The notes under the pieces: model-generated | Database searches by the model: none | What the model was told of the DNA's origin: nothing | Seen by the model: only the letters and a program-made list of their open reading frames with translations | NCBI RefSeq assembly: GCF_041248615.1 | Contig: NZ_CP158426.1 | Length of the DNA: 64,000 nt | Direction: 5' to 3' (one strand) | From: Escherichia coli | GTDB lineage: Bacteria; Pseudomonadota; Gammaproteobacteria; Enterobacterales; Enterobacteriaceae | Part shown: in pieces, positions 10,062 through 11,629 of the stretch | Layout of the letters: each line of letters begins with the position of its first letter | Position numbering within the stretch: position 1 is the stretch's first letter | Program-made: the position numbers and the translations under genes

Positions 10062-10401
10062 TACCGTTGTCTCTCTTCCAGGTTTACTCCTGATAGAAAG
10101 TCATCGGCACTTGACGGTAATTTCTTACGACCAAAAACCTCTTTGCGTCACATTTTTACAACAATTATGGCAGAGAAGAATAATGCCATTGGAATGAAGA
10201 GAGTAACGAATGATTAAACTGGCTAAACCGAATGACGAAAAATTCTGGAAAACAGCACGCAATTTCGTGAAGTGATTATTTTCGTCCCTAAGGAAACCTC
10301 ATAGGATGCCTGCGGGTGCCTGAGACTTTCTGTTTTCAGGCTAACCGGGAATCAGAAAGACGAAGGCCCCGACCGATATTTCTATCAACCGAGGCCAACG
10401 A

Positions 10402-10609
<208 letters not shown>

Positions 10610-10680
10610 GGGCAAGCGCGGGGATTTTCCCCGCGCATCTGACTAGCAGATTCATTTTCTCATGGCACCCCTTTTACACT

Positions 10681-10854: not shown

Positions 10855-11024
10855 ATAACCTCCATGGTTTATCGAATCTTATGTTCGATTTGAACGTTAT
10901 ACGCTGGTTTATTTTGATACCGTTGATGAGATCAAAGATCGGGCGAATTGATTAAAGATAAGCCAGATGGACGTATGGATAAGGATTATGGTTTTATTTG
11001 TCATACAAATAAATATAATAGGCG

Positions 11025-11088
11025 CTTCCGATGTAGACCCGTATTCTTCGCCTGTACCACGGGTCGGTTTTAGTACAGGCGTTTTCTT
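11025..11088 (+). ncRNA. rydC: RydC small regulatory RNA (about 64 nt)
   Basis: Sequence CTTCCGATGTAGACCCGTATTCTTCGCCTGTACCACGGGTCGGTTTTAGTACAGGCGTTTTCTT matches my recollection of RydC, with terminal hairpin plus U-run; lies between ydcA and cybB, convergent with cybB. Confidence 0.65.
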
Positions 11089-11098
11089 TAAATATCCT

Positions 11099-11629
11099 TC
11101 AGGAACGTTTACGCGGCATCATGCGTAGAAGTGTGTTGTCCTTCCAGAAATAGTGGTGTGCCAGTGCAGCCGCAGCGTGCAACCCGATGACAAAATATCC
11201 CAGATTCGCCAGCATTTCATGCCACGACTTTAAGCTATCAACCCGTTCGAAATTGGCCTCTGATGCATAAGGCATCGTCAAACCAAACGCAAACCACGGG
11301 TTGCCTCGGTTATACATCATCACCAAACCAATCACTGGCAGCGCAATAAACAGGAGATAAATCACCAAATGTCCCAAATGCGCCAGTCCCGTCATCATCG
11401 GTTTTGGCTTAGGTATAATCGGCGGGGTTGGGTATTTCAGCCTTAACAAAAGACGAACGACCATCAGCACGAGAATTGATATGCCACAGGAAACATGAAT
11501 CATGTTGATGAGTGGCCGATCGCTACGTGGGAAGAAACCCCGAAACTCCATTGCGCAATACGCTGCGATAACCAGCATAAAGACCAGCCAGTGAATGCTG
11601 ATTTGTAACCTTGAGTATTTATTTCCCAT
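11099..11629 (-). CDS. cybB: cytochrome b561 CybB (176 aa)
   Basis: Track ORF 11099-11665 trimmed to MGNKYSRLQISIHWLVF...; heme-binding His residues in a 4-TM protein; recognised as CybB. Confidence 0.9.
   Translation of the reverse strand: MGNKYSRLQISIHWLVFMLVIAAYCAMEFRGFFPRSDRPLINMIHVSCGISILVLMVVRLLLRLKYPTPPIIPKPKPMMTGLAHLGHLVIYLLFIALPVIGLVMMYNRGNPWFAFGLTMPYASEANFERVDSLKSWHEMLANLGYFVIGLHAAAALAHHYFWKDNTLLRMMPRKRS

Follow-up and report, generated by a model that had tools for sequence, protein, structure and literature searches.

The stretch of E. coli DNA analysed here, 64,000 nt long and hereafter termed the window, carries the small RNA gene rydC at its normal E. coli place, tail to tail with cybB. 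The hairpin at the RydC 3' end is not a canonical shared terminator, and cybB transcripts likely end further on; taken as a whole, we regard this explanation as almost certainly correct. The sequence argues against a simple terminator shared by the two genes and for read-through of cybB into rydC. RydC itself, its pseudoknot, its Hfq complex, its cfa target, its YieP repressor and its adjacency to cybB are all already known, and the gene is annotated in K-12. The identity, anatomy, conservation and covariation of RydC, and also the missing U tract of the cybB strand, were computed here.

An Rfam scan of the whole 64-kb window gave three matches above the gathering score, among them RydC (RF00505) at 11025..11088 on the + strand. 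The match covers model positions 1-64 of 64 with 92.5 bits and an E-value of 5.2e-17, far above chance, the gathering score of RF00505 being 48. The matched sequence is 100% identical to K-12 rydC (b4597); the locus belongs to the RydC family and is indeed its reference allele. The initial annotation had recognised RydC at 11025-11088 from the letters alone, and its coordinates, strand and identity were all right. It had also proposed an alignment to the reference RydC as a check, and this placed the RNA at the same position in K-12 with 100% identity and not elsewhere. In the K-12 MG1655 annotation, rydC (b4597) occupies 1491442..1491506, a length of 65 nt, and cybB (b1418) occupies 1490902..1491432 on the opposite strand. 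From the RF00505 match, the K-12 identity and the K-12 Term-seq 3' ends, the RydC small RNA gene of 64-65 nt is assigned to 11025..11089 (+).

Alignment of the window against K-12 MG1655 over 166 nt revealed differences only upstream of the rydC promoter, whereas RydC, the spacer and the end of cybB are identical. These differences are three substitutions upstream of the palindrome that precedes the rydC -10 element. The two loci thus share the RNA sequence, promoter, spacer, neighbours, seed, stems, U-rich tail, 3' ends and convergent cybB, and differ only outside the RNA, for example in the three upstream substitutions and in gapC, which is intact in the window. The local gene order is trg, hokB/sokB, ydcA, rydC, cybB, gapC and aldA, on the E. 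coli chromosome. Two ORFs of 41 and 53 aa that overlap 10948-11128 (+) were rejected as genes, being mechanical ORFs across a known small RNA. Altogether, every hallmark of RydC that sequence can reveal is present at the locus: model score, seed, pseudoknot, terminator with tail, promoter with YieP site, and synteny. Expression, Hfq binding, activation of cfa and repression by YieP are taken from the literature, where RydC expression, Hfq binding and target regulation were published for the identical K-12 sequence.

The RNA begins with a single-stranded 5' seed, CUUCCGAUGUA, at 11025..11035 (+), which is assigned from its invariance and its pairing with cfa. It is invariant in 10 of 10 RydC variants, with positions 1-12 unchanged. 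Within the K-12 cfa leader, the seed finds its complement around -110..-98 relative to the start codon and forms a duplex of -18.3 kcal/mol, an energy that only 10 of 1000 shuffled seeds could match. Activation of cfa by RydC via this seed has been published (PMC11340327, PMC4337610).

The seed is followed by two interleaved stems, S1 and S2, which together make up an H-type pseudoknot. Stem S1 (11036..11065, +) corresponds to inverted repeat I3 and pairs GACCCGU (11036-11042) with ACGGGUC (11059-11065). Stem S2 (11049..11081, +), which corresponds to inverted repeat I2 and is also the terminator hairpin, pairs CGCCUGUAC (11049-11057) with GUACAGGCG (11073-11081). Counting the 16 pseudoknot pairs across the ten variants gave 160 paired cells out of 160, compared to 26-47% when the partners were slid by 1-3 columns. 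All nine pairs of S2 are kept, four of them with compensatory double changes (G-C to A-U, U-A to C-G, A-U to G-C and C-G to U-A). The seven pairs of S1 are likewise kept in the ten variants, with one A-U to G-U change and no covariation; since the second scan pattern had partly fixed S1, however, this invariance says little. Both stems, for which the initial annotation had proposed a folding check, are confirmed by this pair counting. Minimum-free-energy folding of the whole RydC was not better than that of shuffles (z = -0.48), and it was dropped as a test in favour of pair counting because it cannot represent a pseudoknot. The crystal structure of RydC with Hfq is in agreement with the pseudoknot fold (PMC4337610).

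On the RydC strand, the S2 hairpin has an energy of -13.7 kcal/mol and is followed by the U-rich tail UUUUCUUU at 11082..11089 (+), which is read as the termination signal and the Hfq-binding 3' end. The tail has seven U among eight nucleotides and a tail score of -4.92, within the top 0.13% of window 15-mers; the score is U-weighted and was written here after the TransTermHP formula. A simple terminator scan missed the RydC terminator, because its 15-nt loop exceeds the limit of the scan, and reported a spurious GCCTGTACCACGGGT hairpin instead. RydC's U-rich tail has been described to bind the proximal face of Hfq and, with the hairpin, to give Rho-independent termination (PMC4337610). K-12 Term-seq (Adams et al. 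2021, PMC7815308) detected a very strong 3' end on the rydC strand under each of three growth conditions, at position 1491443 or 1491442. These positions correspond to 11088 and 11089 of the window, inside the tail UUUUCUUU; with respect to rydC the same source terms the end "primary", and with respect to cybB "antisense" (PMC7815308).

These features are consistent with a mechanism in which RydC of 64-65 nt would fold into the S1 and S2 pseudoknot and leave the seed CUUCCGAUGUA free. S2 and the tail UUUUCUUU would serve both as the Rho-independent terminator and as the Hfq-binding end of the RNA. Together with Hfq, the seed would pair with its targets, chiefly the long cfa mRNA leader, and would shield cfa from RNase E and Rho. 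Protection of the leader would in turn yield more cyclopropane fatty acid synthase.

Upstream of the gene, a perfect palindrome, TTTATTTGT-CAT-ACAAATAAA, spans 10993..11013 and represents a probable YieP operator, as judged from the inverted repeat and a motif match. Its 9-nt arms are 100% complementary and its centre lies 22 nt upstream of the rydC start (-22). Read on the - strand, the palindrome gives ATTTGTATGACAAAT at 10996-11010, an exact match to the YieP motif atTTGTaTGAcaAAT derived from the ChIP-exo data of Nguyen-Vo et al. (PMC7642389), and this is the sole match in the 64-kb window at up to two mismatches. Both rydC and ydcA were picked as YieP targets in that ChIP-exo study (PMC7642389). 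YieP is a GntR-family repressor that represses rydC 20-fold in E. coli (PMC11340327); the latter paper did not locate the operator at rydC, and noted that an earlier putative YieP regulon was without rydC. The palindrome is kept in Escherichia, Salmonella-like and Citrobacter-like loci, with the central triplet inverted in the Citrobacter-like type. We therefore propose that the palindrome at 10993-11013 is the putative YieP operator of rydC, with binding at this exact site being probable on the strength of the motif.

The -10 element TATAAT, read from the sequence at 11014..11019 (+), directly follows the palindrome, and the rydC start is at 11025. In agreement, rydC has been described as having a perfect TATAAT while lacking an obvious -35 box (PMC11340327). 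Transcription from 11025 would be driven by a sigma-70 promoter whose TATAAT box lies beside the YieP palindrome, and with the box placed next to the operator, RydC would be made only upon relief of YieP repression.

Comparison with other genomes was based on two pattern scans, which yielded 88 loci with ten distinct RydC sequences. The first, a scan of a genome collection with the pattern CTTCCGATGT-N11-CTTCGCCTG, was too strict and returned six Escherichia loci and two chance matches; the latter, on a Lachnospiraceae and a Verrucomicrobiaceae contig, were rejected as they have no RydC-like fold. The metagenome scan fixed S1, so that covariation in S1 could not be tested, and missed RydC of the Klebsiella/Enterobacter type. 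The cybB gene is convergent with rydC in 84 of the 84 loci that have downstream sequence. The claim of the initial annotation that RydC is convergent with cybB and abuts it is thus borne out, both by these loci and by the K-12 annotation.

The loci differ in the gap between the 64-nt RydC and the cybB stop codon. Loci of Escherichia (E. coli, E. albertii, E. whittamii and others), identified through named records and identity of sequence, have a gap of 8-10 nt. In Citrobacter-like loci, recognised by frmR and an alcohol dehydrogenase gene upstream as PMC11340327 describes, the gap is 36 nt. Salmonella-like loci, which were assigned from the flanking methyltransferase gene upstream, have one of about 82 nt. 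Salmonella RydC, the RNA of the crystal structure, has the same seed, the same S1, an equivalent S2 and a convergent cybB as in the window. Compared to the window, the Salmonella-like locus L043, attributed to Salmonella by its flanking methyltransferase, has a loop longer by one nucleotide, an S2 with compensatory changes at three pairs, and a gap of ~82 nt instead of 10 nt. The convergent layout in Salmonella, with RydC between STM1638 and cybB, was in print by 2008 (PMC2515195), and a convergent cybB has been reported in most species (PMC11340327, 2024), whereas rydC is located elsewhere in Klebsiella and Enterobacter aerogenes (PMC11340327). The tail-to-tail arrangement of rydC and cybB is the ancestral synteny.

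Within the species, 5415 out of the 5426 complete E. coli genomes contain exactly one match, at an identity of at least 95%, to a 136-nt query comprising the operator, RydC, the gap and the end of cybB. The rydC-cybB locus is absent from the other 11 genomes, which fits the IS-mediated deletions around hokB/cybB that arose in laboratory evolution lines (PMC8569431). In the strains with a 100% identical rydC region (L001 and L104), IS150 is inserted between trg and hokB; the window is without IS150 there (about 10062-10460).

The cybB gene, as seen from its ORF and annotation, occupies 11099..11629 (-). It is 531 nt long and encodes cytochrome b561 / superoxide oxidase of 176 aa, with a TGA stop codon whose complement is at 11099..11101. 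Between the 64-nt RydC and this codon lie the bases 11089..11098, in line with the initial annotation, which had RydC ending 10 nt before the cybB stop; measured from the 65-nt form of K-12, the spacer (11090..11098) is 9 nt. In either case, a separate terminator for cybB would not fit into it.

The initial annotation had further suggested that the RydC hairpin may double as the cybB terminator, and this suggestion is not supported. A shared bidirectional intrinsic terminator would require that S2 stop polymerases from both directions, ending both RydC and cybB. S2 is indeed a perfect 9-bp inverted repeat that forms a stem on both strands, at -13.7 kcal/mol for RydC and -15.8 kcal/mol for cybB. 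Moreover, the 10-nt gap leaves no room for another structure, and the simple terminator scan found no other terminator-like site on the cybB strand from the cybB stop to ydcA. However, an intrinsic terminator needs a U-rich tract after the stem, and the cybB strand is poor in U at this point. Past the stem it reads AAGAAUACGGGUCUA, the first eight nucleotides of which hold a single U. The tail AAGAAUAC that follows the hairpin, with one U among eight, has a score of -1.56, and about 81% of window 15-mers are as U-rich or richer; it is less U-rich than the median window 15-mer. Bidirectional terminators have a symmetric arrangement of A tract and U tract, whereas the RydC strand is U-rich on both flanks of the hairpin, leaving the cybB strand A-rich on both sides. 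In addition, no 3' end of the cybB strand was recorded at or just past the hairpin in K-12 Term-seq (PMC7815308), although low expression of cybB could hide one.

A relative that keeps a dedicated cybB terminator beside that of RydC also speaks against sharing. In the Citrobacter-like locus L076, the 36-nt gap contains ACCCCGCGTAATGCGGGGT followed by TTCTTTTAG / UUCUUUUAG, a hairpin of -13.8 kcal/mol with a tail score of -4.17. As cybB has its own terminator in this locus, the RydC hairpin is not its end there. Escherichia loci, with a gap of 8-10 nt versus 36 nt, are without a cybB hairpin of the L076 type, and no canonical terminator was found in the Salmonella-like gap. The cybB terminator of L076 (404-422, -) stands back to back with the RydC terminator, a common A/U-rich stretch providing both tails, and the same layout is seen in L081, L088 and L070. 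Taking the U-poor tail, the Term-seq record and the Citrobacter-like locus together, we consider a terminator shared by RydC and cybB highly improbable.

Bidirectional intrinsic terminators between convergent genes have reportedly been described by Ju et al. in 2019. Like them, the present locus has a single strong hairpin between two convergent units, but here the U tract and the mapped 3' ends are found on one strand only. The rydC/cybB hairpin does not belong to this class, as it lacks the U tract on the cybB strand. It may nevertheless have a non-canonical role, for example as a protective stem-loop at the cybB 3' end after Rho-dependent termination.

A hairpin that lacks a U tract can still mark a 3' end, as exemplified by the aldA end in the K-12 Term-seq table (PMC7815308). 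The convergent genes gapC and aldA lie 41 nt apart (12820-12860) and have one common hairpin, GGCGGAGG-AAAAAA-CCTCCGCC. In K-12 Term-seq, the aldA 3' end maps 5 nt past this hairpin, and no U tract follows the hairpin on the aldA strand. For a hairpin shared between convergent genes, gapC and aldA are more promising candidates than rydC/cybB.

As to how cybB transcripts end, no structure fits into the 10-nt gap, and any cybB transcript therefore extends antisense into rydC; reading at least some way into the gene is probable. On the cybB strand, an untranslated stretch at 10940..11041 (-) is C-rich and G-poor, with a C/G ratio of 2.0-3.6 and 8-13% G in 60-nt windows from 11041 to 10940, making it by composition a candidate Rho-loading region for cybB read-through RNA. 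In Rho-dependent E. coli transcripts, Dar and Sorek (2018, PMC6061677) described a stable stem-loop that no uridines follow, with the rut site immediately beyond it and exonucleases that shorten the RNA as far as the stem-loop. The cybB strand is similar in having a stable stem-loop without a U tract and then C-rich, G-poor RNA. In contrast to those ends, it has no recorded steady-state 3' end or bicyclomycin-sensitive region, so that the likeness is one of sequence layout only. From this composition, we infer that cybB transcripts most likely end beyond the hairpin, possibly by the action of Rho on the C-rich, G-poor RNA, and the antisense copy of the RydC hairpin would at most protect the cybB 3' end after Rho-dependent termination.

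The Term-seq and Rho-region tables (PMC7815308) have no cybB-strand entry at K-12 1491433-1491999, from the hairpin to ydcA, possibly owing to weak expression of cybB under the growth conditions used, and the supplements of SMRT-Cappable-seq have no entry for cybB, rydC or ydcA. A literature search on cybB and its terminator found nothing relevant, and no published mapping of E. coli cybB ends was apparent. The only cybB-strand 3' end in the Term-seq tables is weak and is seen in one growth condition, at K-12 1491416, corresponding to 11115 of the window. This position falls within the cybB ORF, 16 nt ahead of the final base of the ORF and 26 nt before transcription from cybB would reach the RydC 3' end; possible origins are processing, pausing or polymerase collision.

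Alternatively, cybB transcripts might cross rydC into ydcA as a read-through operon with no termination near RydC. The genes cybB and ydcA are co-oriented, with ydcA 244 nt downstream, and the strand they share has no predicted canonical terminator in between. However, the 244-nt untranslated gap is C-rich and G-poor and would favour Rho loading, and YieP at the palindrome together with the rydC promoter complex would stand in the path of the polymerase. No data on a joint cybB-ydcA transcript were found, and we consider such an operon unlikely. Termination beyond the hairpin, possibly by Rho, remains our preferred reading.

A further alternative is a cis-antisense coupling of the two genes, in which, for want of a cybB terminator in Escherichia, the cybB 3' UTR is fully complementary to RydC and polymerases converge. 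The expression of cybB and the production of RydC would then affect one another through transcriptional interference, through duplexes cleaved by RNase III, or through sponging of RydC by this UTR. Once it continues for more than 10 nt beyond the stop codon, a cybB transcript necessarily overlaps RydC, and the gap is 8-10 nt throughout Escherichia. Polymerases that stall or collide could account for the weak 3' end within the cybB ORF, though this is far from proof. On the other hand, no interaction between RydC and cybB is reported in the literature searched, and the RydC sponge reported by RIL-seq is OmrB. Furthermore, YieP keeps rydC strongly repressed under standard conditions and cybB has no strong 3' ends, so the two are probably rarely co-transcribed. 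The location of rydC elsewhere in Klebsiella and Enterobacter aerogenes also indicates that RydC can do its work without cybB. On balance, coupling appears very unlikely. By the same measure, there is a slim chance of coupling between the superoxide oxidase gene and the membrane-stress small RNA RydC, arising from the absence of a dedicated cybB terminator in Escherichia, which makes antisense entry obligatory. If the read-through were regulatory, it would form a new link between the oxidative-stress and membrane-stress responses.

The initial annotation had also remarked that the track gave no hint of RydC. This agrees with the NCBI PGAP annotation of E. coli genomes, which lists only cybB under the match and no rydC, whereas the K-12 reference record annotates rydC; the track is empty over rydC because PGAP omits it. 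The gene is thus omitted in the routine annotation of thousands of E. coli genomes, and a track can look empty over a well-studied gene.

Several other features of the window were noted. RF01794, named "sok antitoxin", matches 10314-10465 (+), on the mRNA-sense strand of hokB/mokB, and reaches exactly up to the hokB start codon. In the K-12 annotation, sokB is on the opposite strand, corresponding to 10356-10412 (-) of the window, so that the RF01794 match apparently represents the leader of the hok mRNA and not the antisense RNA. The 22-codon gene yncP at 10587-10655 (-), annotated in both K-12 and PGAP, is convergent with hokB (10460-10609, +) and overlaps its 3' end by 23 nt; a G+C-rich hairpin, GCGCGGGGATTTTCCCCGCGC, is located inside yncP at about 10616-10636. 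The gapC gene at 11818-12819 (+) is an intact ORF encoding a glyceraldehyde-3-phosphate dehydrogenase of 333 aa, and is a pseudogene in the K-12 MG1655 annotation. In addition, the small RNA MicC is found at 59089-59204 (-), where RF00121 matches over the full model with 105.7 bits.
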